A program made the position numbers and the translations under genes. Positions 3,963-20,606 of a stretch of DNA of 34,320 nucleotides are shown here, piece by piece (the stretch's first letter is position 1; every line of letters starts with the position of its first letter). The notes under the pieces are model-generated. The model was given only the letters and a program-made list of their open reading frames with translations. It ran no database searches and had not been told where the DNA came from. This stretch comes from a virus (taxonomy: Duplodnaviria; Caudoviricetes), in the IMG/VR virus record IMGVR_UViG_3300044847_000013, positions 1 through 34,320 of that record. One strand, written 5' to 3'.

Positions 3963-4047
3963 GAGGAACATGTAGGTAACGGGCGGCGCGGGGCGGCCAG
4001 AAGAAAGCGCCCCGCTTATTTACGTCCCGTTGACCGGATTGTTAGCG
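3963..4047 (-). repeat. attC-like site 1
   Basis: GAGGAAC-atgta-GGTAACGGG...CCCGTT[G]ACC-ggatt-GTTAGCG. Confidence 0.8.
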
Positions 4048-4071
4048 GGCGCGGTAGAAGCGGAGAACACG

Positions 4072-4317
4072 ATGACCAGAGAAGAATGGAAAGCCAGAGC
4101 AGCCACCCGGTACGCGGAGCGACTTGGCGTAACGGGAGACGAAGCGGGACGGCTGGCTCAGGAGCTTTACGACGGTCAAGACGGCGAGTTTTGCGAATAC
4201 GCGAACTATGACCCTGAAGGATGCGCCGACGAGGACATTGCCGAGCGCTCCTGCGGCGAAGAGGACGACGAAGAAATGGACGATGCGACCAGGTACGCGG
4301 CGCTGGGCTGCATGTGA
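4072..4317 (+). CDS. Acidic hypothetical protein, cassette 1 (81 aa)
   Basis: ATG 4072 after GGAG RBS; very D/E-rich C-terminal half; stop immediately before site 2. Confidence 0.7.
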   Translation: MTREEWKARAATRYAERLGVTGDEAGRLAQELYDGQDGEFCEYANYDPEGCADEDIAERSCGEEDDEEMDDATRYAALGCM

Positions 4318-4318
4318 C

Positions 4319-4410
4319 TGCTAACAACAGCGTAACCTGCAGCCGCGCGGAAGAGGATGAAGCGGAGTAGCGCCCCGCTTTCGGGCGTCAGGTTGACCGT
4401 AGAGTTAGAA
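4319..4410 (-). repeat. attC-like site 2
   Basis: TGCTAAC-aacag-CGTAACCTG...CAGGTT[G]ACC-gtaga-GTTAGAA. Confidence 0.85.
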
Positions 4411-4432
4411 GGCCCGACCACGAGACGAAAAG

Positions 4433-5275
4433 ATGCGCGACCCCTATAAGATTACCGAGCCGACATGCATCAGCTTCAGCGGCGGACGCACCAGCGGCTA
4501 CATGCTGTGGCGCGTGCTGCGGAGCAATGGCGGCCTGCCCGCCGATGCCACGGTGTGCTTCGCCAACACCGGCAAAGAGGAAGAGGCAACGCTGCGCTTT
4601 GTGCGCGACTGTGCCGAACGGTGGGGCGTACCGATTACCTGGTTGGAATTCCGCGACGATGACGCCGGGTTTGCCGTGGTGGATTTTGAGACCGCCAGCC
4701 GGGATGGCGAACCGTTTGAGGCGCTGATTCGCAAGCGGAATTACCTGCCGAATCCGGTGGCGCGGTTCTGCACAGTCGAGATGAAGATCCTGACCATTGA
4801 GCGGCACTTGAAGGCGAGCGGCTGGGACGACTGGGTGAGCATGGTTGGCGTGCGCGCCGACGAGCCGCGCCGAGTTGCCAAGATGCGCGCTGACCCGAAA
4901 GGCGGGCGAGCCAGTGCGACCCGAGCGCTGCCCCTAGCCGATGACGACATTGACGCAGCGCAGGTGGGCGCGTTCTGGCGGGCGCAGCCGTTCGACCTGG
5001 AACTGCCGAACATGAACGGCACGACGGTGCACGGCAACTGCGACCTGTGCTTTTTGAAAGGGGCCGGCCAAGTGTTGAGCCTGATTGCGGAGAAGCCGAG
5101 CCGGGCGACGTGGTGGGCGCGGATGGAAAGCAGCATCACGAACGCCAAGATCCAGAACGGCGGACGGTTTCGGAGTGACCGCCCGAGTTATGAGCAGATG
5201 GTGACGTTCGCCACAGCGCAGGCCGACGCTTTCGGCTACGAAGACGAAGGCATCGCATGCTTCTGCGGCGACTGA
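4433..5275 (+). CDS. PAPS-reductase-like / PP-loop adenine-nucleotide alpha-hydrolase family protein, cassette 2
   Basis: ISFSGGRTS PP-loop, FANTGKE, RFCTVEMKI, GVRADEPRR, GNCDLCFLK and terminal CFCGD. Confidence 0.85.
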   Translation: MRDPYKITEPTCISFSGGRTSGYMLWRVLRSNGGLPADATVCFANTGKEEEATLRFVRDCAERWGVPITWLEFRDDDAGFAVVDFETASRDGEPFEALIRKRNYLPNPVARFCTVEMKILTIERHLKASGWDDWVSMVGVRADEPRRVAKMRADPKGGRASATRALPLADDDIDAAQVGAFWRAQPFDLELPNMNGTTVHGNCDLCFLKGAGQVLSLIAEKPSRATWWARMESSITNAKIQNGGRFRSDRPSYEQMVTFATAQADAFGYEDEGIACFCGD

Positions 5276-5279
5276 CGCC

Positions 5280-5364
5280 TTCTAACGAATAGTTAAGCAG
5301 CGGCGCGAGGCTGGTTCAGAAACGCGCCCCGCTTAAAACCGTCAGCTTCATCGTAGTGTTAGGC
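5280..5364 (-). repeat. attC-like site 3
   Basis: TTCTAAC-gaata-GTTAAGCAG...CAGCTT[C]ATC-gtagt-GTTAGGC; 5282-5335 is identical to 5761-5814 (54 bp). Confidence 0.85.
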
Positions 5365-5387
5365 TGGTTACTACAACGAGAGGAAAG

Positions 5388-5582
5388 ATGATGTACGGAT
5401 GCAGATCGCTGGACGATGACGAGCTCGTCGAAGAGGGCGACATCATAAAGGACGTTGAGGCCGGAGAGTACCGCGAGGTTGCCGTCGATTCGTTCGATGC
5501 GCTGGCCATCGGTCTGGATGCTGGCGCGGTGCGCAAGTGGGACAACGTCAACGATGTGCTGCGTCGGGTGTCGGTAACGTGA
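5388..5582 (+). CDS. Acidic hypothetical protein, cassette 3 first ORF
   Basis: GAGAGGA RBS after site 3; 64 aa, D/E-rich. Confidence 0.7.
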   Translation: MMYGCRSLDDDELVEEGDIIKDVEAGEYREVAVDSFDALAIGLDAGAVRKWDNVNDVLRRVSVT

Positions 5583-5596
5583 CGCCTATCTTAATT

Positions 5597-5764
5597 ATGG
5601 CCAGAGGGCAATATGAACTATGGCTATGTGAAAAAGTGGACGGGGCGCTATCCCCGGTTCCTGGGACCGGCCCGCTCTCTCTGCCGCCAGACTGGCGCGA
5701 TGCGATCCGCGAGGCGGACAGGCAGCGCGAATTGTCTCGTGGGGCTGAATATGACGCCGCCTAA
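5597..5764 (+). CDS. Hypothetical protein, cassette 3 second ORF (55 aa)
   Basis: ATG 5597 in the frame of the listed 5537..5764 ORF; TAA stop lies in the GCCTAAC core of site 4; no clear RBS. Confidence 0.45.
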   Translation: MARGQYELWLCEKVDGALSPVPGTGPLSLPPDWRDAIREADRQRELSRGAEYDAA

Positions 5765-5844
5765 CGAATAGTTAAGCAGCGGCGCGAGGCTGGTTCAGAA
5801 ACGCGCCCCGCTTACGTTACGTCTGCTTCAACGTTTTGTTGGGC
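5759..5844 (-). repeat. attC-like site 4
   Basis: GCCTAAC-gaata-GTTAAGCAG...CTGCTT[C]AAC-gtttt-GTTGGGC. Confidence 0.85.
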
Positions 5845-5865
5845 TGGTATCTACGGAGAAAGAAA

Positions 5866-6033
5866 ATGTTTGTGATGATCCACGAGAGCGGCGACATGGT
5901 TCTATTGAAAGAACTGACTGATAACGACACCAATGCGGCAGACGACGGCATTGTCGATCTGCTGGATGTCTCAACCGCAGACAAGCCGCTGCGGTATTTC
6001 AATGGCGAGTGGGAAGAAATTGAATCCGCCTAA
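5866..6033 (+). CDS. Acidic hypothetical protein, cassette 4 (55 aa)
   Basis: ATG 5866 after ACGGAGAAAG RBS; TAA stop in the core of site 5. Confidence 0.7.
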   Translation: MFVMIHESGDMVLLKELTDNDTNAADDGIVDLLDVSTADKPLRYFNGEWEEIESA

Positions 6034-6117
6034 CGAGTAGGTAACATGCAACCGCGCTGTGCGGTTGATCGAAGAAGCGCCCCGCTTCCGGTTGTCAGGT
6101 TGACCGGCATGTTGGGC
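6028..6117 (-). repeat. attC-like site 5
   Basis: GCCTAAC-gagta-GGTAACATG...CAGGTT[G]ACC-ggcat-GTTGGGC. Confidence 0.85.
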
Positions 6118-6144
6118 TAGTGGATACAACGAAAGGAAAAGGCA

Positions 6145-6612
6145 ATGGGAGTTTCGACAAACGGAGAGATTTTTTACGGGGTTGTCTTCGAGGAGGACTA
6201 CGAATTTCCGTGGGACAAAGAGCATGACGGCGATATTGACGCCTGGTGGCTCTACGGAGTACATGGATTCAAGCATTCGTTCGAACTCTACGATGCGATG
6301 GGCAATTGCCTGAACGGCCGCGAGCCGAGCAGCGAGGAAAGCGGCCGCTACTTCGACGAAAGCCGCGCGTTTGTTGAAGCGCACCCGCTGCCGGTGGAGT
6401 TGGTGAATTACTGTTCCGGCGACTACCCGATGTACGCACTGGCGGTTCCAGGCACCGTTATTACGGCGCGACGCGGCTACCCCGCAGAGTTCGACCCGGC
6501 CACGCTGACGGTAAAGATGGAGCAGGTCGATGCGCTGAGGGAGTTCTGTGCCGACCACGAAATTGAGTTTCCAAAGGAGCCCGCGTGGCTGCTTACCAGC
6601 TGCTGGGACTAG
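6145..6612 (+). CDS. Acidic hypothetical protein, cassette 5 (155 aa)
   Basis: AAAGGA RBS; fills the interval between sites 5 and 6 exactly. Confidence 0.8.
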   Translation: MGVSTNGEIFYGVVFEEDYEFPWDKEHDGDIDAWWLYGVHGFKHSFELYDAMGNCLNGREPSSEESGRYFDESRAFVEAHPLPVELVNYCSGDYPMYALAVPGTVITARRGYPAEFDPATLTVKMEQVDALREFCADHEIEFPKEPAWLLTSCWD

Positions 6613-6613
6613 C

Positions 6614-6701
6614 ACATAACGTCACGGTAAGCGGCCGCGGCGCTCTCACGGTTGAAGAGACGCCCTGCTTACCTTACGTCGCGTTGACGCAAATGTTAGG
6701 C
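6614..6701 (-). repeat. attC-like site 6
   Basis: ACATAAC-gtcac-GGTAAGCG...CGCGTT[G]ACG-caaat-GTTAGGC. Confidence 0.78.
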
Positions 6702-6713
6702 ATGGAGGCGACG

Positions 6714-7019
6714 ATGTTTGGCGACCCGAACGACGCTAGAAGCTACGAAGACTGGATGAACGACATGGCGACCAACAAACCACAACGGATGCCACGAGGC
6801 TGGCAAGCGCAATACCAACTGCGCTGCGACTGCTGCGGGAAGTTTGTTCGACCGGGCGAACCGGGCGGCAGTTGGGTGATGGTGCCGGGGACGGACTGGA
6901 ACGCAGAAGACGAGCGCGAACGCTGCCCGGCCTGCACCGAAAAACACGGGCAAGCGCGCTGTGGGCTTGGGTACGTTGAACACCTGTGCTGCGGCATGAA
7001 TGCGATGCCTAACGTCTGA
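6714..7019 (+). CDS. Cys-rich putative zinc-binding protein, cassette 6 (101 aa)
   Basis: ATG 6714 after GGAGG; CDCC, CPAC and C..HLCC clusters; ends PNV* through the core of site 7. Confidence 0.7.
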   Translation: MFGDPNDARSYEDWMNDMATNKPQRMPRGWQAQYQLRCDCCGKFVRPGEPGGSWVMVPGTDWNAEDERERCPACTEKHGQARCGLGYVEHLCCGMNAMPNV

Positions 7020-7030
7020 ATTAACCGGCA
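7007..7030 (-). repeat. attC-like site 7, left half only (truncated)
   Basis: GCCTAAC-gtctg-AATTAACCGG with no matching ...GTTRRRY arm before the next RBS. Confidence 0.65.
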
Positions 7031-7057
7031 CGCCGACCACGAAACGAACAAGGAGAG

Positions 7058-7330
7058 ATGATGATGATGATGATGATGCAAGAACAGATTGAAGGCGCGC
7101 AGAGCGAGAACGAGGTGCTGCGTAATGCGTTGCGCTGGCGCGAGCCTGATGAGGAGCCGCGCGAAGGACAGGAGGTGTTGGCGGTGATCTACCCGTACAA
7201 CAACACGAGCAACCGCATGAACATCGTTCATGCGCGCTACTGCGGCGGCAAGTTCGTGGATGACGCGGACGGCAGAGACCTGCACCCGGCGCACTATTGG
7301 ATGCCGGCGCCCGTGATCCCCGGGGCCTAA
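7058..7330 (+). CDS. DUF551-like hypothetical protein, cassette 7
   Basis: WREPDEEPREGQEVL...HYWMPAP pattern typical of DUF551; AAGGAG RBS; begins with seven ATG codons; TAA stop in the core of site 8. Confidence 0.65.
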   Translation: MMMMMMMQEQIEGAQSENEVLRNALRWREPDEEPREGQEVLAVIYPYNNTSNRMNIVHARYCGGKFVDDADGRDLHPAHYWMPAPVIPGA

Positions 7331-7403
7331 CGTGGGAGCTAAGGCGCCCACAGCGGCGGACAGGCTGTGCCGCTGTGGGTCGCCCTTGAGCGACAGGTTA
7401 GGC
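7325..7403 (-). repeat. attC-like site 8
   Basis: GCCTAAC-gtggga-GCTAAGGCGCCCACAGCGGC...GCCGCTGTGGG[T]CGC[C]CTT[G]AGC-gacag-GTTAGGC; long stem with three bulged bases. Confidence 0.9.
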
Positions 7404-7426
7404 CACGCTGTGGCCGGAGCGAGACG

Positions 7427-7651
7427 ATGGCAACACACCAACGATGCGAATGGAACTGCGGCAGCACTGCCTGCGATGCGCCGAAACGACCGCCTCTCGA
7501 AGATGGCCCAGCAATCAACCTGGGCCGCTACGCTGGCACCTATGGCGGCTACACGACGGAACCGCCGAAGCCGCGAACCTTGTGGCAACGCTTCCAAGCG
7601 TGGCGCGAGCGCACCGGGTTCTTCATGGACGGCCGCGATGGTGGCATGTGA
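7427..7651 (+). CDS. Hypothetical protein, cassette 8 (74 aa)
   Basis: ATG 7427 after GGAG; stops 4 nt before site 9. Confidence 0.6.
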   Translation: MATHQRCEWNCGSTACDAPKRPPLEDGPAINLGRYAGTYGGYTTEPPKPRTLWQRFQAWRERTGFFMDGRDGGM

Positions 7652-7655
7652 ACGG

Positions 7656-7746
7656 GCCTAACGCTTAGCTGTGGGACCGCTGCGCGCGGCATTTACTACG
7701 GAGCGAAGGCCGCTGTTCGGCGGCCCACTCGAAGCGCCTGTTAGGT
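7656..7746 (-). repeat. attC-like site 9 (L boxes degenerate)
   Basis: GCCTAAC-gctta-GCTGTGGGACCGC...GCGGCCCACTCGAAGCGCCT-GTTAGGT. Confidence 0.7.
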
Positions 7747-7764
7747 GCATTGCGGAGAAAGAAC

Positions 7765-8079
7765 ATGGTGTTGAAACGAAGCATTGAGCAGTGGCGCGGC
7801 TGTGATCCGGAGGCAATGGCGTACCACCTGAGCGAGGCGGCAATCATGTACGCCTTCCGTGACGCGAAGGCCGACATCTTGGCGCTGAATGCGGAGAACG
7901 AAAGGCTGCGAATGTCTATCAGCGATTCGATGATTGATTACGTTGAGAAATCGCATGGTATACGCCGTGACCATAAAGGGCGCTGGTGGGTTGAACTTAC
8001 AATCAATACGACGCTCGGAGGGAAAAAGTCGCTGCGGGAGACAATTTATGCGGCAATGAAAGAGCGGCCTAACGAGTAG
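7765..8079 (+). CDS. Hypothetical protein, cassette 9 (104 aa)
   Basis: ATG 7765 after CGGAGAAAG; ends PNE* through the core of site 10. Confidence 0.7.
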   Translation: MVLKRSIEQWRGCDPEAMAYHLSEAAIMYAFRDAKADILALNAENERLRMSISDSMIDYVEKSHGIRRDHKGRWWVELTINTTLGGKKSLRETIYAAMKERPNE

Positions 8080-8158
8080 GTAACCGGCACCGGCGAAGGC
8101 CGGTAATTACAACGCAATGCCCTGCTTACCGGTGTCCGCGTTGACCGGATTGTTAGGC
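8067..8158 (-). repeat. attC-like site 10
   Basis: GCCTAAC-gagta-GGTAACCGGCACCGG...CCGGTG[T]CCG[C]GTT[G]ACC-ggatt-GTTAGGC. Confidence 0.9.
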
Positions 8159-8178: not shown

Positions 8179-8445
8179 ATGCAGAGCAATGAAAATTTTG
8201 AATTTGACGCAATATGCCTTGGTGCCGTTGGACTTACCGCGGCATGGCGGCGCCACAAGGTTGACGTGAAGAGAAGGTACGGGCCGATGCTGATTATCAG
8301 CCAGTGCTGCACTGTCGATGAAGGCGTGTGCCTTCCCGCCTCTGACGTAACCGTTACCACGGTGCAGGGATTGCTCGCTCTGCGCGAAGCAATCGACGAG
8401 GCATTGCGCTATGACAGGCCGGAACAATCGACGCCTAACAAATAG
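8179..8445 (+). CDS. Hypothetical protein, cassette 10 (88 aa)
   Basis: ACGGAGAAAAAT-ATG leader; ends PNK* through the terminal core. Confidence 0.7.
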   Translation: MQSNENFEFDAICLGAVGLTAAWRRHKVDVKRRYGPMLIISQCCTVDEGVCLPASDVTVTTVQGLLALREAIDEALRYDRPEQSTPNK

Positions 8446-8492
8446 TGGACATCAATCGCGACGTCTACCCTGGCGCATGACGTCTACTCTGG
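8433..8492 (-). other. Candidate attI-like terminal site (single core plus two direct repeats)
   Basis: GCCTAAC core (8433-8439) without a palindromic partner, followed by GACGTCTACCCTGG (8460-8473) and GACGTCTACTCTGG (8479-8492). Confidence 0.45.
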
Positions 8493-8579: not shown

Positions 8580-8768
8580 ATGAACGAAACAACCGATGAC
8601 CGCGTGATCTGGCGACAGGATCTCCAAGTGCAAATGCATGTCTGCTCCGAGACCATGCGCCGCTACATCCGCGACCACAAAGTGCCGCCGCCAGACGTTG
8701 CAATCAGCCGGCAGCGGATGGGCTGGCGGCTCTCCACCCTGCGGGCCGCCGGGATCAACCTGGCGTGA
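8580..8768 (+). CDS. Excisionase / AlpA-like HTH protein
   Basis: 62 aa, basic, with an SETMRRYIRDHKVPPP...GWR pattern; convergent on and overlapping the 3' end of int. Confidence 0.7.
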   Translation: MNETTDDRVIWRQDLQVQMHVCSETMRRYIRDHKVPPPDVAISRQRMGWRLSTLRAAGINLA

Positions 8769-9948
8769 CCTGTGTTGCCTCTTTGCCCTCACAGGCATCC
8801 AGCCAATCCGCCCACGCCTGCAACATCGTCCGCCTCTCGGCCAGGTACTCGGCGCGGTTGTACGTTGCCCGGATGCGGTCCTCTGGCATGTGCGACAACT
8901 GCCGCTCGATGGCATCGGCGCTATATCCGCGCTCGTTGGCCCAGGTACTGCCGATAGTCCGCCAGCCGTGTCCGGTCAGTCGCCCCTTGTATCCGATCCT
9001 ATGGATCAGGTAGAGGATCGCGTTCTCTGACATTGGTCGATCAATCCGCCGGTCGCACGGGAACACATAGGGACCACCGCGTGATCTGGCGCGCATCTCC
9101 CTAATAACAGCAATCGCCTGGCGTGGCAGTGGCACGACATGGCCGCGGCCCATCTTCATCCGGCCATCAGGAAGTCGCCAAAGCGCATCCGCCTCGTCAA
9201 TCTCCTCCCAACGCATCATGCGAAGTTCCGCCGTCCGACTCCAGGTATAAGCGAGGAGACGGCAGGCAAGCACGGAATTCAGATCGCGTTCAAGGCGCAG
9301 TCGGTCAAGAAAGGCCGGAACCTCGTTCAGTTCGAGCGCCGCGAAGTGCGTAACCGCCGCCTTCGTGAATGCCTTTTCCGGGCGAATGAGCGCCGCCGGG
9401 TTGAGCACCGCATAGCCGTGCTCGACAGCCCAATCCCATACCTGCCCTGACCACATGCGGACCTTGCGTACATAGTCGTGCTTTCCGGAAGCATCCATCT
9501 TCCGCAGTTCATCCAGCAACTCGTCGCGGGTGACGCTGCCGATCTGGCGCTCTCCCAATACGGGGTAAAGGTGCATTTCCAGGCCGCGCATAACATTGGC
9601 GCGGTAGGAATCGGAGATGTCCTTGCGCCCTCCCCAATACTCCTGCGCCGCCTGTTTGAGCGTCACCCCCTTGCGCATTGCTTTGCGCGGAGCCATAGGG
9701 TCGCCACCATCGCGCAGAGTGGCCTTCAAGGCATCGCGCTTGATCCGCGCTTCGGCCAGCGATACTTCCGGGTATGGCCCCAGGCTCATGGTCTGCTGCT
9801 TTCCAGCGAGGCGGTAGGCAACGCGCCAGGTCTTGGCGCCAGAGGGGCTGACGAAGAGATGCAGACCGCCGCCATCAAATAGCTTCTGCGGTCTGTCGGA
9901 TGGCCGGACAGCCTTGCATTTGCTGTCGGTTAGCTGATTTGTAGGCAT
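8755..9948 (-). CDS. int: P4-type tyrosine integrase with N-terminal arm-binding domain
   Basis: LTDSKCK...KLFDGGGLHLFVSPSGAKTWR arm domain; catalytic R (SRTAEL), K (RMKM), HGWR, LSH and YNRAEY. Confidence 0.95.
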   Translation of the reverse strand: MPTNQLTDSKCKAVRPSDRPQKLFDGGGLHLFVSPSGAKTWRVAYRLAGKQQTMSLGPYPEVSLAEARIKRDALKATLRDGGDPMAPRKAMRKGVTLKQAAQEYWGGRKDISDSYRANVMRGLEMHLYPVLGERQIGSVTRDELLDELRKMDASGKHDYVRKVRMWSGQVWDWAVEHGYAVLNPAALIRPEKAFTKAAVTHFAALELNEVPAFLDRLRLERDLNSVLACRLLAYTWSRTAELRMMRWEEIDEADALWRLPDGRMKMGRGHVVPLPRQAIAVIREMRARSRGGPYVFPCDRRIDRPMSENAILYLIHRIGYKGRLTGHGWRTIGSTWANERGYSADAIERQLSHMPEDRIRATYNRAEYLAERRTMLQAWADWLDACEGKEATQVTPG

Positions 9949-10210
9949 TTTGGCTCCCGGAGCGATCCGATACCAACACCGATGCCTACAGACTGCCCGT
10001 GTTGAGTGGGCGTTTTACGTGGCGGCCTGTGGGGAGTGGTTGGCGTAGTGATCGCCGAAAGCCGCTATTCTACTTGCGCTTTGGCTGTTTTTGGTGGTCA
10101 GTCGTTGCCTATGTCGCGCCGTCTCTGGCGGATGGGGTGGGTGCCACACATAATGAATAGAAGCGGTTTTCGGAGATGAGTTTTACCCGATGCCGTCAAA
10201 AATGCCTACA
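9940..10210. other. attP: tRNA-3'-end-like core flanked by arm-type integrase sites
   Basis: Core 10126-10141 reads CCCACCCCATCCGCCA on the - strand (tRNA-Ser-like 3' end, G-CCA). 12-mers CCGATACCAACA/CCGATGCCTACA (9967-9990) and CCGATGCCGTCA/AAAATGCCTACA (10187-10210), plus an inverted copy TGTAGGCATTTT (9940-9951). Confidence 0.78.
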
Positions 10211-10364
10211 GGCTCGCGTTGCACCATCCGAGGAAACGGACAGCGCAGAGATAGCAAGTTCCAATGCTGCGCCACGGGCAGCAGAACTCGATTGCTCCGG
10301 GAACGGATGCCTCCCTCCGGTGCTGTGACCGGTACTCAACGATCCAGATCACCTTGCCCACGGC

Positions 10365-13428: not shown

Positions 13429-16400
13429 TCACCACTCCACTTTGCCGGCACCAGCGAAGCCGCGGCCCACGGTCGCAGACAACTGGTAGGCGTTATAACG
13501 CAGCGGGTTCGGCACCGCGCTGACCGGATTACTGACCATCCACGTGTCCGTCACTTGCCCAGCGAGCAGAGTCCTGGCGTCTGCGAAAATGGCATAGACG
13601 GAGGTGTTGACTGTCCATCCGCCGTAGGTACCGCCACCCCCTACCTTTGTCCAGGAGGCGCCGCCCCACCGCCACACGCCGTCCGTCGTGCCGCCGTAGG
13701 TGGCGGCAACCAACGCACCGCCGCATATGGCCAGCAGGACGTTCGCCGATGTCCAACTGCTGTTGACTCCGTCCCCGCCGATCTTGGTCCAGGCAGAGCC
13801 ATTCCAAGACCAGCACTCGCCGTCTCCGCTGTCAGAACCGAGCCCTGCGTACAGGTTGGAACCGTCTGAAGCCAAGCCGGTCACCACTTCGTAGCCAGTC
13901 GTCCATCCGCTGTTCAGGCTGTCCCCGCCTACTTGGGTCCAAGTGCCATCAGCGTTGCGCCGCCAAACCTCGCCGTCCCCAGTGGAACTACCAAGCCCGG
14001 CGTATAGCAGGCCGCCGTGGACACACAGCGAGGAGACCTGCTCGTAGTTTGTGTTCCAGCTGCCACCCAGCCCGTCGCCGCCGATCTTGTACCAGTTGTC
14101 TCCAAGCGCCCAGACCTCAGCGTCTCCCGCGCTGCCTCCGACCCCGGCGACCAGCTGGTCGTTGAGCACGGCCAAGCACAGCACATCGATCTTGCCGGCA
14201 TCGTTCCAACTGCTATTGACGCCATCGCCGCCGATCTTGGCCCAAGAATTTCCGTCAAAGGCCCAAAGCTCGGCGGTAGTGGAACCAGAGGAGCCGATGC
14301 CGGCATACACCTTGCCGCGGAACGCGAGCAAGCAATTCACGCGGCGGTAGGTCTCTGCGGCCCACGACCCATTCCTGCCGTCGCCGCCCACCATCTCCCA
14401 CGTCTGCCCGCGGAAGCGCCACACTGCAGCAGCGCTTCCGCTGGTGGCGCTGAGGCCAGCATAGATGTCGTCGCCGTCTTTCAGGAGAGATGAAACCTTG
14501 GTCACGGTCGCGTACGTGGAGGCGTAAGACGTCGATCCGTCCAGGGTAGCTATCTGCAGCCAGTCCGGCGCCGTGAAGTCCGTTGCTTGATTTGCCGCGC
14601 TGTAAGTGGCAGCCGGTGAGGTAAGACCAGAGATGGTCCTGGCAACCGTGCCGTCAAGCCGCAGGATATCCACCTCGTAAGCCTCGGTAGCCTCAACCAT
14701 CGAAGCGTCGACGTAGTCCATCCACGCACCGCCACTGCGCGTCCGGCGAACGAACGTCAGCGCGAAGTCGCCGTTTGGCTGCAACGTCCCAGCGACCAAC
14801 GACGGGGCATAGGGTCTGAGAACGTTGGCCGCATAAGTGAAGACGAATGGACTTCCCGGAGACGTCGAGCCAAGTGACGTTGCGCGGTACAAGCGCTCCA
14901 CGCCGTTATCGGAAACGTCTAATGCCGCCTTGACGACCGCAGACATGTTGAGGAATACCACAAGGTCGCCTGATGAGTGTCCGGCGGTCATGTGCTCTGT
15001 ACCACGCCGGCCGCGCAACCACCCAGTAAGTGTCCACGACCCATCGACCTCCTGGAAAGCCGATGTGTATTGCGCCAATTCCCATCCATCGCTGCCACTG
15101 CGGATTGCAACTGCATTGCCCCCATTGAGAACGTTGGTCTTGGATAGCGTCTCAAGCATGCCGTCGTTGACGAGCCGCACATTCAGCAAAGAGGACTCAT
15201 CGAATACATTGCCGCCATGCCAATCGGGCATAGCGTTGGTAGCCGCACCCCAAACCACATCGCCAGAGAGCGCAGCAAGATCAAGGTAACTGGACCCGCC
15301 GTCCGGGCTGCGCTTTACAAGCGCGCCGTTCCAGGTGGTAAAGCCCGGGTATCCAGAGCCTGCCAGATAGATTCCGCTGCTATTCTGAGAATCGATAAGA
15401 GCTGGCGTATCTATGATAAATAGCGCGGTCGGGCTGAGCGTATCAATCGTCTGCGGCGTCACAGGCGACGACACGCCAGCGGCTGTCTGCGTATAAACGG
15501 AAGCGTCCTCAGTCACGCACTCCCAGAAGATAAGAGAACCCTGCTCGCTCTTCTTGGTGATCCTGACCAAGTATCCATTCACTACTACAACGTCAGTAGG
15601 CTCGATACCAGCGTATTTGTGTGTGGTGATGAATTTTCCGAGTGTCCGCCCAGTCCAAGCGTTTGACATCAACGTCTCGACAGTTTGTTTTGCCTTGTCG
15701 TCGGACAAAACCATGGGCAGTTCAATCTTAACCTGCTGTTGAGTAGCAACCGTCGTGCGGGTTGCGGACTGCTCGCCAACCTGATAGTCCTGATTACGAC
15801 TTGCATATGTGACGTGGACTGCCTTTGGAAGGTCCCACTCTTGAGCTCTGGTGAGCGTTAGAACATCCGGCAACTCTGATCCGTATTCCCTAGCGGCCAG
15901 ATCATCTTCTGTAATAGTGGCCACAGACGCTCCGCCACGCGGAACGTATTTGATAGTTTGCCCTGTCTCCGTGGCATCAAAGAAATAGGCGGTGCGCAAA
16001 GGCTCAATACCGGAGCGCGCTGCTGTCTGGGTCGTCAGGAAGAAACCATCAACAGGAATGCCAGCTAGCCTACTGACATCAATCTCTCCTGGTGTGAGGC
16101 CAGCGCGCAAATTTATGTCCCCAACAACATCGGATAGGTCAGCGGCCGTTGGGTCCATGCGATCCAGAGCCCAACGCCGTAACACTTGCCGCCCAAGCGC
16201 CGCCACATAGTCCAGTGCGAACAGGTAACCGGCCCCCGGGAAGGCCACCACGTCGACGCACGAAGAGCAGCTGAGCGTCTTGTATGTGGAGCCATCCTGC
16301 AGGCGGATGCCGACTATCTGGCTCGGTGCGGCAGACTTCCACACCCACATGACATCACGGTCTGGGTCATAGAAGATGTCGTCTGGCGCGAACGGGAGGG

Positions 16401-17985
16401 CTATCTCGCGTGTGATCGAAGCCCAGAACCCGGAGATGTCGACCTCCTGCAGCCGCCACGGCTTATTGGCGAGGTCGGTAAGGTCCGGCGTGAACACGCT
16501 CCAGAGGACGTGACGGTTGCGGTCATAGACCAGTGATGCGCGGTAGCATTTGTCGTTGCGAAAGTACGGCGGCGTGGTGCCGGTGTAGTCTGCCCAGTAT
16601 TCCTCCCAGCGCCCGCGCAGGTCGTTCCACAGGAAGATGCTGCCAAGTGCGTACTTGTCAGGCGCCGATCCGCCATAGTCCGACAGAAGAAACATGTTGC
16701 TGATGACGTTAGGGTCCTTATTCGGTGCGAACGCCACCTGGTTCCGGCCTGGGCGCATGTTGTGAATGGAGTCGAACCCGCCGCCAAGAGGGTAAGGCCA
16801 CTCGCCAACGATGCCGAAGATGTCGGAGTTCCAGTTGAAGTCGTACTTGTACGCAAGCTCTATGTCGAACTTTGAGATATACCCGCCGTTGATTCCCTCG
16901 GCCACGTAGACGTACGGCTGATACGGATCTGCGAAAACGTTGACGATGCCGGCGTACGCCGTGTTAGACCTGGGGGACGGGCGCGTCCAATAGACCTGCC
17001 CCGTGGCCATGTCGATGCGCTGCCAGTAGGTCTGGTTCCAGACGAATACCGACCGCCGCTCGTCGTGCATGGCGAACTGCGAGTCGCGGAAATCGGTGAA
17101 GAACGGGTATTGTGGGTAATCCAACTGGTACCCGACCCTGGCTATGTCCGTGCCGCTGACGTCCTTGCGCAGTACTGGGTTGACGGCGTCCCTGGTCTGG
17201 AGCCAAACCTCGTTCATGAAGTTGTTCCTGGCCAGGTAATTGCCCATATCCGTGGGCGTGTCGTACGTGGTCAGGTAATCGCCCGTGCTGCCGAGCGCGA
17301 CGACCTCGAACGTGAAGTTCGGCAGGGTGTTGCCGTAGTCCGTGAGGTCGAAGTCTTGGAACACGACGTAGGCGCGGCCACGGTACGCGGGAACATTGCC
17401 TGCGCCCAAGTAGGACTCAATCACCGGGTCGGGCGGTTGAGTCATTGTTCCGGTGTAGTACGTCAGGTGCAGAGAAGCGGCATTGACCGTTGATACGACG
17501 GTGGCTGTGATGGCGTTATACGTGCCGTCGTACTCCACCACCGGACCAATGTTGTCTATGGAGACATCGTAGATGAGCTTGCCGTTCGCCCAGATACGCC
17601 TGATGCCGTGGATCTCATTGCCACACAGGCCGATGGCGCAGGAGACGGTGTAGTAATAGCTCTCCGTATCCTGGCTTGGGCCACCACCTTTGCCACCGCT
17701 ATTTGTGACTACCTTGTGCTCTTGAATATCGGCGGACCAGATGACGTTTCCAGCCAAGCGAACAGCGCCCCCATACACGATAGGAATGCTCTGTCCGTAA
17801 GATGAGTTCTGTACCTTACGGTCATCAAGTCGTGGACCGTATATGGTAGGAAGGGTTGGTGGATCGGCGATACCTCCAGCAATCATGCCGATCTGGGCGC
17901 CGTAGAGAGCGCCAGATGGTCCACCGGCATAGAACCCGATGACAGCACCAACGACGCCGCCGAGAAGTTGGCCAGCTGAACTCAT
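13429..17985 (-). CDS. Tail tip / host-specificity protein (GTA megatron-like) with beta-propeller insertions
   Basis: GPRLDD..VQNSSYGQSIPIVYG..RLAGNVIW, VPAYRGRAYVVF, LTRAQEWDLPK, LRGRRGTE and QLSATVGRG motifs; 1518 aa. Confidence 0.88.
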   Translation of the reverse strand: MSSAGQLLGGVVGAVIGFYAGGPSGALYGAQIGMIAGGIADPPTLPTIYGPRLDDRKVQNSSYGQSIPIVYGGAVRLAGNVIWSADIQEHKVVTNSGGKGGGPSQDTESYYYTVSCAIGLCGNEIHGIRRIWANGKLIYDVSIDNIGPVVEYDGTYNAITATVVSTVNAASLHLTYYTGTMTQPPDPVIESYLGAGNVPAYRGRAYVVFQDFDLTDYGNTLPNFTFEVVALGSTGDYLTTYDTPTDMGNYLARNNFMNEVWLQTRDAVNPVLRKDVSGTDIARVGYQLDYPQYPFFTDFRDSQFAMHDERRSVFVWNQTYWQRIDMATGQVYWTRPSPRSNTAYAGIVNVFADPYQPYVYVAEGINGGYISKFDIELAYKYDFNWNSDIFGIVGEWPYPLGGGFDSIHNMRPGRNQVAFAPNKDPNVISNMFLLSDYGGSAPDKYALGSIFLWNDLRGRWEEYWADYTGTTPPYFRNDKCYRASLVYDRNRHVLWSVFTPDLTDLANKPWRLQEVDISGFWASITREIALPFAPDDIFYDPDRDVMWVWKSAAPSQIVGIRLQDGSTYKTLSCSSCVDVVAFPGAGYLFALDYVAALGRQVLRRWALDRMDPTAADLSDVVGDINLRAGLTPGEIDVSRLAGIPVDGFFLTTQTAARSGIEPLRTAYFFDATETGQTIKYVPRGGASVATITEDDLAAREYGSELPDVLTLTRAQEWDLPKAVHVTYASRNQDYQVGEQSATRTTVATQQQVKIELPMVLSDDKAKQTVETLMSNAWTGRTLGKFITTHKYAGIEPTDVVVVNGYLVRITKKSEQGSLIFWECVTEDASVYTQTAAGVSSPVTPQTIDTLSPTALFIIDTPALIDSQNSSGIYLAGSGYPGFTTWNGALVKRSPDGGSSYLDLAALSGDVVWGAATNAMPDWHGGNVFDESSLLNVRLVNDGMLETLSKTNVLNGGNAVAIRSGSDGWELAQYTSAFQEVDGSWTLTGWLRGRRGTEHMTAGHSSGDLVVFLNMSAVVKAALDVSDNGVERLYRATSLGSTSPGSPFVFTYAANVLRPYAPSLVAGTLQPNGDFALTFVRRTRSGGAWMDYVDASMVEATEAYEVDILRLDGTVARTISGLTSPAATYSAANQATDFTAPDWLQIATLDGSTSYASTYATVTKVSSLLKDGDDIYAGLSATSGSAAAVWRFRGQTWEMVGGDGRNGSWAAETYRRVNCLLAFRGKVYAGIGSSGSTTAELWAFDGNSWAKIGGDGVNSSWNDAGKIDVLCLAVLNDQLVAGVGGSAGDAEVWALGDNWYKIGGDGLGGSWNTNYEQVSSLCVHGGLLYAGLGSSTGDGEVWRRNADGTWTQVGGDSLNSGWTTGYEVVTGLASDGSNLYAGLGSDSGDGECWSWNGSAWTKIGGDGVNSSWTSANVLLAICGGALVAATYGGTTDGVWRWGGASWTKVGGGGTYGGWTVNTSVYAIFADARTLLAGQVTDTWMVSNPVSAVPNPLRYNAYQLSATVGRGFAGAGKVEW

Positions 17986-18390: not shown

Positions 18391-19281
18391 TCAGCGACCC
18401 CCAACGTCAAGCATCTTGTCGATTCCAGGAAGGTCTGGCTCGCCTTGGAAGTTGATAAGATTTCCGAACTTAACCTTGCATCCGCCAGCAGCACGCGCCG
18501 ACTTATTGCAACCAGAAAGAATGGAAAATGTGTCTCCAATTTCTAGCGCATATGGCATTCCGAGTTTGAGCGTCACCTGTTGGGTGGCGGAAACGTAATC
18601 CTTGACCTCCATCGACAAACCGACGTTTGCCCCGGAGATCCACGTAATCTTCCCGTGCTGGAAATACGAATCCGTCGGTGCGCCAGTGGTGGTCGGCGTC
18701 AGCCGAACAGTTGAGCTTCCGAGATTGGTAGTGAATACGGCCGTAGAAGTCGCTGTTGATACAGTTCCAGAGGCCGTGTATTCAGTCACATCCTTGGTGC
18801 ATCGCGCATCACCGAGTTCAGCCCGGCATGATGCTGAATAGAGCTCTCCGATAACCTGTTGGAGAGCCTGCATGAGCCCGCGAAGTTCAGCGACGAAGAT
18901 ACCGTCCTTGAGCGTCAATTCGCCAAGTCGGCCATGTCTAAGAATGTTTTTACCGGCGGTCAAATCGAGATAATTAACCTCGAAAATCTCGATCTCAGCG
19001 TGATCCCACTTTCCAGCCAGGACATCCGCTTCGGTAATAGACGGCGACATGATCGCGCCTTCAAGATCCAGGTTGTCCACCGACAGATCGTCTGTCGTCT
19101 CGATCGCGCTGGCGGTATATCCGGCCATAGCCATATAGGTCACGCCGTCGATTACCAACTCATCGTGGTAATCGGTGAAGCCGAGAACCAAGCCGCTCTT
19201 GAGAGTTGCTTTCCAGCACGTGCAGATCGTGGTGACTTCCTGCGAGAAATGCGTATTGAGATCTGCGGGAATGGCCTTCAT
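18391..19281 (-). CDS. Baseplate hub protein (DUF2163 / BR0599 family)
   Basis: CW...LGFTDYH, LSVDNLDLEG, CRAELGDARC and GCNK..C..KFGNLINFQGEP. Start ATG 19281 overlaps the upstream stop. Confidence 0.9.
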   Translation of the reverse strand: MKAIPADLNTHFSQEVTTICTCWKATLKSGLVLGFTDYHDELVIDGVTYMAMAGYTASAIETTDDLSVDNLDLEGAIMSPSITEADVLAGKWDHAEIEIFEVNYLDLTAGKNILRHGRLGELTLKDGIFVAELRGLMQALQQVIGELYSASCRAELGDARCTKDVTEYTASGTVSTATSTAVFTTNLGSSTVRLTPTTTGAPTDSYFQHGKITWISGANVGLSMEVKDYVSATQQVTLKLGMPYALEIGDTFSILSGCNKSARAAGGCKVKFGNLINFQGEPDLPGIDKMLDVGGR

Positions 19282-20606
19282 GCCCGAATCTCCACAATCG
19301 GGATAGAGTTCCATCCATAGATTTGCCCGGCGTCCCTGTGCCCTTCCAATTTGTCGGTATCGAAGCGACATGGCACGTCGAATTCGCAGGAGACCTGCAG
19401 AACATCGGTGATTTGCGGGAAGACGCTGATCGTTCCTCCCGATGTCCGTGCTGAATAGGCAGTCCCGTTGATTCCAGAGAGATCGAAATAGTCGGTTGCC
19501 GCATTGGCGACGGTGAAGGTCAGGCCATTGACCTGCGTCATGCCAACCACGCCGGAGAGATACGCCAAGGAACCGTTCGCGCGACCATGGGCGGCTGAAT
19601 AGACCCGTACCGGATTGGTCTGGGTGATCCCGTACTTGATCGCAGAGGCCCCGGAGGTGTAGGCGGTGTAGCCGGTCCCGTTGATCCCGGAGAGCTCAAA
19701 GCCCTTGGTGGTCTTGTTGGCGACGGTGAAATACAGGTTATTGACCTGCGTCATGCCGCCGACCGTCTCGAGCTTGACCAGATCGCCATTGACGAACGTA
19801 TGGGCATCGGCATGCACCCACACCGGGTTGGTCTGGGCGATGCCGTAGCGGGTCGCTGTGCCGCCGGAGGAATAGGCCGTGTAGGCGGTAGTGTCGATCC
19901 CGAGCGAGTAGGTATTCGCGTCAATGACCGTCACCGTCGCGGTGACGCCGTTCAACTGCGTCATTCCGACGATTCCGGAATGGGTGATGCGGTCGCCGGT
20001 GGTAAAGGTGTGGCCTGTTGCCGTCACCACGCCAGGGTTCGCCTGGGTGATCCCGGTGATCGTTTTGGCCACGTTCGCATCGACCGCCTTGACCACGTTT
20101 GCATCGATGGTCTTGGTCACGTCCGGTTGAAAGGTGATCAGCCCGGTGGTGGTGTCGATGGCGATCTGTCCGGCGCCGGCCCCTACGGTCAAGGGAGTGT
20201 CATTTCGATAGCCGACCACGGTCCCGGCCACCGGCTTGCGGATGGCGCGAATTTCCGACAGGGCGCCGGCCGCGTAAAGCTTGCCGATCTGGTAAGTAGA
20301 ACCACCGTTACCAACTCCGGTGCCAAGAACGCCATCCGCCTTGGCAACCTGGTAGTCGATCCAGTCCTTGAAGCGGAAGCCGTGCGCTTTTCCTTTCACC
20401 GAACGGAAGAAGGCAAAAAGGACTTCCATTTGCGCGCGGGTACGTACAGCATGGGATGCGTCCCATCGACCGCGTGATTGAGACCAGTTGCTGTTTCGTT
20501 GCTCAAACCCTGAGCGAACAACGATCACCGTTGTGCTGTACTCGGGGCCGCCAACTACGCCAGAAGAGATGTCATCCGGGAAGCGCGGGGTTTCTAGGAA
20601 GGCCAT
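19278..20606 (-). CDS. Distal tail protein (DUF2460 family) with three inserted repeat domains
   Basis: FLETPRFPDDIS.G..GGPEYST, GFRFKDWIDY and EFDVPCRFDTD termini; three ~70-aa internal repeats. Confidence 0.9.
   Translation of the reverse strand: MAFLETPRFPDDISSGVVGGPEYSTTVIVVRSGFEQRNSNWSQSRGRWDASHAVRTRAQMEVLFAFFRSVKGKAHGFRFKDWIDYQVAKADGVLGTGVGNGGSTYQIGKLYAAGALSEIRAIRKPVAGTVVGYRNDTPLTVGAGAGQIAIDTTTGLITFQPDVTKTIDANVVKAVDANVAKTITGITQANPGVVTATGHTFTTGDRITHSGIVGMTQLNGVTATVTVIDANTYSLGIDTTAYTAYSSGGTATRYGIAQTNPVWVHADAHTFVNGDLVKLETVGGMTQVNNLYFTVANKTTKGFELSGINGTGYTAYTSGASAIKYGITQTNPVRVYSAAHGRANGSLAYLSGVVGMTQVNGLTFTVANAATDYFDLSGINGTAYSARTSGGTISVFPQITDVLQVSCEFDVPCRFDTDKLEGHRDAGQIYGWNSIPIVEIRA

Follow-up and report, generated by a model that had tools for sequence, protein, structure and literature searches.

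The DNA analysed here is the whole of IMG/VR record IMGVR_UViG_3300044847_000013 (hereafter the window), a linear stretch of 34,320 nucleotides (nt) estimated to be 59% complete, and the element in question is an array of integron attC recombination sites at positions 3963-8158. The source is a temperate siphophage, and the array sits in its early arm; protein family searches placed head and tail genes on the − strand and the early arm, with its small genes, on the + strand. Every gene of the array lies on the bottom strand of its attC site, behind that site, and no integron integrase gene (intI) was found on the contig. We regard it as probable that this is an integron attC array whose units, each an attC site followed by a gene, are likely excised and inserted at the AAC core by an integrase of the host or of a co-resident phage.

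Nine full attC sites and one half site separate the small + strand genes between 3963 and 8158. Sites were scored with a covariance model (R1) built from 30 of 38 usable bacterial top strands, with sites fitting a pattern derived from the window left out. R1 matched all nine full sites on the − strand at 20.9-59.9 bits: S1 (3963-4047, top strand −, bottom strand +; 20.9 bits at 3977-4044), S2 (4319-4410; 21.7 bits), S3 (5280-5364; 23.6 bits), S4 (5759-5844; 30.2 bits), S5 (6028-6117; 36.3 bits), S6 (6614-6701; 23.9 bits), S8 (7325-7403; 59.9 bits, the best site), S9 (7656-7746; 24.9 bits), and S10 (8067-8158; 40.9 bits). The half site S7 (7007-7057), to which no strand is assigned, consists of a core and left arm followed by a ribosome-binding site; its right arm is absent, and it gave no covariance-model match. 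The invariant AAC and GTT of the inverse core and core are present in 9/9 full sites, and complete RYYYAAC/GTTRRRY occurs at both ends of five (S4, S5, S8, S9, and S10). S1 has a degenerate distal core and is probably the original flank. The array displays the anatomy of attC sites, with paired L boxes, extrahelical bases on one strand, fixed spacers, and a variable terminal structure, S6 having a weak L box and S7 being half a site. An internal GCCCYGCTT motif recurs in seven of the sites. A pattern derived from the sites had three matches in the window, a number reached by 0/100 shuffles (mean 0.00). With two or more attC sites within a few kilobases and no intI, the array falls under the definition of a cluster of attC sites lacking integron integrases (CALIN), with the missing 41% of the genome as a caveat.

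An earlier note on this DNA had proposed that the genes are encoded on the attC bottom strand and had named model matches on the + strand as one observation that would speak against it; the + strand maxima of R1 were only 8.8 and 8.6 bits. For controls outside the model (TJE1 and a Vibrio integron), the eight best matches fell on the gene strand. Because the model matches lie on the − strand and the genes on the + strand, the genes lie on the attC bottom strand; that is, the sense strand of the window is the recombinogenic strand. A script that evaluates both polarities placed the extra base in the right arm of the + strand in 6/6 detected window sites, as the note had also claimed, and in the left arm of the gene strand in 14/15 sites of the Vibrio integron. 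When polarity was fixed through intI orientation, independent of gene direction, in 14 intI-bearing arrays, 54/54 detected sites were of the left-arm type on the strand leading away from intI. Across 13 aligned sites, 96% of cells showed a paired L box when the bulge was put in the right arm and 58% when it was put in the left; covariation across the aligned sites was not above shuffles. Folding both strands, which the note had recommended, was less decisive: folding energy was discarded as a strand criterion, the + strand being lower in 5/9 unconstrained folds with no separation of the strands, and the chance of R-box pairing was greater on + in 8/9 sites, weakly favoring that strand.

A trio of T, C, and G at 4-nt spacing had been read in S8 and S10; it is present in the sequence and confined to these two sites. 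S8 has three extrahelical bases on the + strand (T7380, one C of 7383-7385, and G7388, from sequence and folds), and in S10 T8135, C8139, and G8143 are extrahelical on + by hand pairing, the computed minimum-energy fold adopting another register. S1 has bulges at T4025 and G4032, and the extra base of the L box in S3 and S4 is C instead of G. The spacing agrees with the bottom-strand extrahelical bases of Nivina 2016 (PMC5027507), given there as G16, T20 or A20, and T24 in the accessible text; the numbering T12, C16, G20 given in the note is unsourced. Alternatively, the array could be canonical, with its true genes on the − strand or with a different recombinase using the − strand hairpin. 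Short − strand open reading frames (ORFs) do occur in 8/10 units, and low-rate top-strand recombination is described for some sites (accessible text of Nivina 2016, PMC5027507), but the − strand ORFs lack ribosome-binding sites and the five that were scanned had no Pfam match, whereas the + strand ORFs have homologues and constantly spaced starts. Since the model matches are all on − and the phage IntI proteins described below pass the integron-integrase cut-off, we consider this explanation exceedingly unlikely; model strand and ORF evidence bring it close to refuted.

At 9/9 full sites, an ATG lies 19-34 nt past the right GTT; in most cases, a purine-rich ribosome-binding stretch precedes it. 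The genes, all on the + strand, are c1 (4072-4317; 81 amino acids [aa], no family), c2 (4433-5275; a PAPS-reductase-domain protein of 280 aa, phrog_424 with E 1e-48, PF01507), the two-gene unit c3a and c3b (5388-5771, comprising 5388-5582 and 5613-5771), c4 (5866-6033; 55 aa), c5 (6145-6612; 155 aa), c6 (6714-7019; 101 aa), c7 (7058-7330; 90 aa), c8 (7427-7651; 74 aa), c9 (7765-8079; 104 aa), and c10 (8179-8445; 88 aa). The gene-then-attC rule of the classical cassette thus does not hold, as all genes are on the bottom strand behind the site. Both c3b and c9 read through the next core, c4 stops at the TAA of the next core, and the stop of c10 lies inside the attI-like site described below. A stop two codons past AAC was considered as a phage-wide design rule and rejected; it occurs at 8/11 cores here, but at 25/124 viral and 10/54 bacterial sites. 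Homologues elsewhere were found for four of the genes (c2, c5, c6, and c8). Those of c6 and c8 in other phages (L043 and L006, respectively) sit between inverted attC sites, and their similarity stops at the downstream core, the upstream hairpins being different. Model matches were near 0/11 viral homologues of c5 and on both sides of the PAPS-reductase gene (c2) in 1/80 viral homologues; c2 and c5 resemble regular phage genes that serve as cassettes only on occasion. For c7, which opens with seven consecutive ATG codons (7058-7078), no viral relative was found. Between c3a and c3b, at 5580-5612, a near-core GCCTATC after TGAC may be the dead core of a lost site.

The last gene, c10, ends in a lone core (8433-8439) that belongs to an attI-like docking site on the − strand (8433-8450), in which the core GCCTAAC is followed by TAGTGGAC. 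In 8/50 listed integron loci, a short motif lies 102-141 nt before intI, and the dock (match at 8435) is the one place in the window where it recurs; the motif was picked after the fact with the window in view and therefore supports no more than the name "attI-like". At a ninth integron locus, TAGTGGAC is exactly identical. Two 14-nt direct repeats (8460-8473 and 8479-8492; 13/14 alike) are possible accessory sites of the dock, judging from their sequence. The array has no integron cassette promoter (Pc) reading from attI into the genes: the genes face the dock, and no promoter-like site was found near it. By its place in the order, c10 is likely the newest insertion. Model scores climb toward the dock (rank correlation of 0.78 over 9 sites, computed by hand), and the older sites of the array are likely decaying. 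The half site S7 may be an inherited junction rather than a recent deletion; together with its leader, it is 86% identical over 59 nt to another phage (L028:3245-3302), in which a right arm is not apparent either. In S3, S4, and S6, a CCCYGCTTA loop motif is able to pair with the left arm, competing with the recombinogenic fold. As intI is absent from the contig, the enzyme is likely supplied in trans. Of five other inverted-array records, two likewise lack intI; both are >90% complete, indicating that integrase-less arrays are a real state.

The same layout was encountered in other phages. A scan with the window-derived pattern yielded 61 viral loci and at least 125 genome loci, and at the 61 distinct viral sites a ribosome-binding site with a start was found on the bottom strand in 49 and on the top strand in 1, in line with the orientation bias that the note had suggested surveying. 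Flanks were purine rich on the bottom strand at 60/61 viral sites, and ORF scores favored the bottom strand at 51, the top at 8, and neither at 2. For the at least 125 genome sites, ORF scores favored top at 91 and bottom at 29, with 5 ties, the 29 being counted without regard to prophage or chromosomal origin; purine content was rejected as a sorter of bacterial sites (57/125 above 0.5, 67 below). Among four arrays of Qi 2023 that were compared, those of Vibrio and TJE1 are normal and those of ctTUS972 and PH101 inverted. In ctTUS972, five model matches lie on − and the annotated genes on +. In PH101, the annotated genes are encoded by the strand that Qi 2023 cloned as the bottom strand, and each of the two attC2 copies is followed on that strand by a ribosome-binding site and an ATG. 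At KR534323 75.9-78.0 kb (L490), PH101 units have converging ORFs on both strands and duplicated leaders.

Segments common to phage arrays bear on whether these units move. Thirty such segments (250-1600 nt, ≥88% alike; examples are L008/L331, with 869 nt, and three units in L346/L347) had an AAC end on the right in 19, on the left in 12, and on both sides in 7, against a random rate of 0.095 per segment end, and the pairs L339/L340 and L346/L347 differ by inserted units. These ends uphold the proposal in the note of an attC-then-gene unit with crossover at the left AAC core. Junctions of units at the R′ core were seen in related phages and in bacterial arrays of the window's attC family, which change neighbors at the same core; none were seen for this phage's own units. 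A different explanation is that the attC-descended sites now serve mainly as homology blocks at gene boundaries, shuffled by Bet/RecE, with IntI no longer acting here. Genes for Bet/RecT and RecE are located in the same arm, the contig has no intI, S3 and S4 have 63 nt in common at 97%, beginning upstream of AAC, several segments common to other phages break inside genes, and S3, S6, and S7 look decayed. Yet most site pairs in the window are 52-72% alike (86% for S3/S4) with spacing and bulge side kept in all 9 full sites, segment ends fall at AAC much more often than expected by chance, and the attI-like end is retained, which together make a purely homology-driven array unlikely.

At five loci found with the pattern, an intI gene or fragment directly follows the inverted array on the gene strand, and three of the products pass the integron-integrase cut-off. 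A search seeded with those phage proteins returned 269 viral stretches with relatives. Around phage intI, counted for the best 80 of the 269 viral stretches plus 11 loci of c5 homologues, 205/206 model matches were opposite to the intI strand. Among 72 distinct phage intI loci, attC sites were found in 44/49 having room upstream; inter-site segments were purine rich on the intI strand in 100/102, and starts with a ribosome-binding site numbered 69 with the intI strand versus 8. Because model matches lie opposite to intI and genes lie with it, phage attC sites keep the usual polarity toward attI and intI, and the flip concerns the genes alone. Most phage intI genes have a conserved attI in front of them; in L330-L409 it comprises, in this order, YAAC, an AATTC box, and one or two repeats of TGTCG type, and it immediately precedes the intI start codon. 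A quick tree of 116 proteins grouped 61 viral proteins and one from a phage-like island in one clade (SH-aLRT 99) that included none of the 45 bacterial rows, and at least two other small phage groups were placed outside the main viral clade. Truncated intI genes follow inverted arrays at L004:1655-1897 and L067:6371-6943; at L004, only the C-terminal end is left, after a dock that looks intact, illustrating how integrase-less arrays might arise. At L349:7538-8966, attC matches occur both downstream and upstream of intI, on one strand throughout.

The window's hairpins are tied to a betaproteobacterial chromosomal integron, that of genome G001 (locus L427; record title Azoarcus sp. Aa7, as given for L144/L145). 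S5 (83-84% identity) and S2 (74-77%) resemble two attC sites of G001 more closely than they do any other site in the window, and the GCCCYGCTT motif of seven window sites belongs to the G001 attC family. The G001 integron has a similar AAC-N8-GAC dock; it differs in having intI, metabolic flanking genes, and normal-facing genes in its four older units, the first cassette alone looking inverted. That cassette (L427:3593-3830, G001:C107) has a bottom-strand ribosome-binding site and a 68-aa ORF, ends at the dock, and is phage-like; its gene had two homologues, with no viral relative found. It was the only inverted-looking one of 23 bacterial first cassettes called (34 loci); a second candidate (L451) proved canonical and was rejected. 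Likewise set aside were nine "inverted" calls of 26 metagenome sites, mostly one ORF-poor cassette in canonical bacterial arrays. An ORF-poor cassette of ~500 nt shifts position among bacterial arrays of the window's attC family (L468, L473, and L485). The separate phage cassette pool proposed in the note is thus only partly borne out: the attC family is shared with normal-facing bacterial integrons, and it is the oriented genes that are mostly unshared. The attC likeness suggests a betaproteobacterial host.

In the proposed mechanism of integrase-driven exchange, the + strand would fold when single stranded. In Loot 2017 (PMC5371416; accessible text), a bottom strand on the lagging-strand template folds and excises more, and long chromosomal arrays avoid this arrangement; if the early genes run with the fork, + would be the lagging-strand template, favoring folding, and the phage layout would be opposite to that of long chromosomal arrays. 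IntI would recombine two AAC cores, releasing a circle, and would insert a circle into the dock at 8437. Incoming cassettes would then enter at the distal end of the early transcript, beside the int region, inverting the order of a Pc gradient, and the phage's own early transcript would express their genes. The enzyme fixes attI-to-attC polarity, and the inversion likely follows from geometry: with attI (often accompanied by intI) positioned at the 3′ end of the early operon, only bottom-strand genes are expressible, and because both cores are symmetric, each offering TAA, either orientation can be built. The attI-like end and the phage-encoded integrases of relatives, neither of which appears in the note, would explain the inverted geometry, intI having likely been lost from, or never present in, this phage. 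Could the hairpins, whatever their origin, instead persist mainly because of a role as RNA in the early transcript, in processing, pausing, or translational coupling between small genes? At each site a sense-strand hairpin stands just before the ribosome-binding site, and in four genes the stop codon is supplied by the next unit. We nonetheless find this very unlikely, as no site has a U-tract terminator and there is no Rfam match, AAC/GTT, fixed spacers, and one-sided bulges are determinants for IntI, and the same attC family occurs in bacterial integrons on the non-coding strand.

Several observations weigh against an active, integrase-driven array. The hairpin preferred by S3 and S6 is a non-recombinogenic alternative, and S7 is a half site. 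For intI itself, no TIGR02249 match and no remnant after the dock were found on this 59%-complete contig. The dock, besides the after-the-fact choice of its motif, had no match to the main phage attI profile (nhmmer, 47 upstream regions, ~3 rows mis-picked). Seeding with phage proteins enriches the viral clade by design, and the bacterial side of the tree is 45 rows only. The right end was not at AAC in 11/30 common segments, upstream attC bodies are not kept with the gene in distant homologues of c2, c6, and c8, and some PH101 units also contain top-strand ORFs. A model match was near related phage integrases at only 3/47 loci. Finally, no close relative with an altered cassette order was found, and the single sequencing run containing this DNA, from which it probably derives, gave no excision joints.

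Several attC sites between small ORFs without intI recall the CALINs reported in phages by Qi 2023 (PMC9892861), the accessible text of which describes recombination of such sites with attI1 by IntI1, bottom strand over top; bottom-strand recombination by IntI1 was demonstrated there for the PH101 sites, which are inverted. That text contains no remark on inversion of genes versus attC, a phage IntI clade, or a phage attI; compared with its arrays, of which TJE1 is canonical, the window array is longer (9 full sites) and ends attI-like. With classical cassettes, as far as the sources are accessible, the array has in common AAC/GTT, spacers of 5-6 nt, extrahelical bases on one strand, a variable terminal structure, and a normal polarity toward the dock; it differs in that the gene is on the bottom strand behind attC, facing the dock rather than away from Pc. 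The "wrong orientation" in the accessible text of Nivina 2016 is a different matter, there being an entire cassette, attC included, flipped by top-strand recombination. Similar in layout are the phage-encoded inverted integrons (L330-L409), which likewise have inverted cassettes in an early arm and a downstream dock; unlike the window phage, they encode intI immediately beyond the dock, in most cases preceded by a conserved attI with no counterpart in the window phage. A literature search whose coverage left out most subscription journals turned up no description of the inversion and none of a phage IntI clade, and the figures or Dryad annotation of Qi 2023 could show orientation; the accessible part of a preprint on archaeal integrons (10.1101/2022.02.06.479319) mentions only reversed intI genes. 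We therefore describe the array as a variant of integron cassette arrays, seemingly undescribed in print, with a predicted activity.

The surroundings of the array are those of a phage early arm. On the + strand, upstream of the array, are genes for a Bet/RecT-like annealing protein (42-902) and a RecE-like exonuclease (916-2700). The arm ends in an excisionase-like gene (8580-8768, +), which meets a phage integrase gene (8755-9948, −); the latter encodes an arm-binding domain, has no match to the integron-integrase family, and is not an integron integrase. Among 61 relatives of this phage integrase, none with an empty site was found; neither an early promoter nor a replication origin was located on the contig (59% complete), and no RNA run containing this DNA was found among the runs listed. 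Upstream of the phage integrase, a direct repeat of 28 nt with imperfect copies (9967-9994 and 10187-10214) is possibly part of attP. Elsewhere in the window are a gene for a 1518-aa tail protein (13429-17985), with short repeats at 13613-13941, and one (19278-20606) for a protein in which a glycoside-hydrolase match is fused to a tail domain.

Cassettes are usually described as gene then attC, expressed from Pc, and phages systematically reverse this, with an IntI clade and attI of their own; what the window itself adds is a dock without an integrase gene and a bacterial attC family to which its sites are closely tied. One attC family at opposite gene ends, in a phage and in a bacterial integron from a plausible host group, offers a direct way into the question of how integron cassettes are made. 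A practical consequence is that tools assigning a gene to the downstream attC would mis-cut phage cassettes. As a tentative possibility, temperate phages may form a second cassette-building compartment, in which attC sites of the host family come to stand before ordinary phage genes (as at the PAPS-reductase gene, flanked by attC in 1/80) and the resulting mirror-image cassettes are shuffled by host or phage IntI at an early-operon dock, sometimes landing backwards in a host integron. In that case, the occurrence of one attC at either gene end would suggest that cassettes form regardless of gene direction and that selection for expression sets the orientation.

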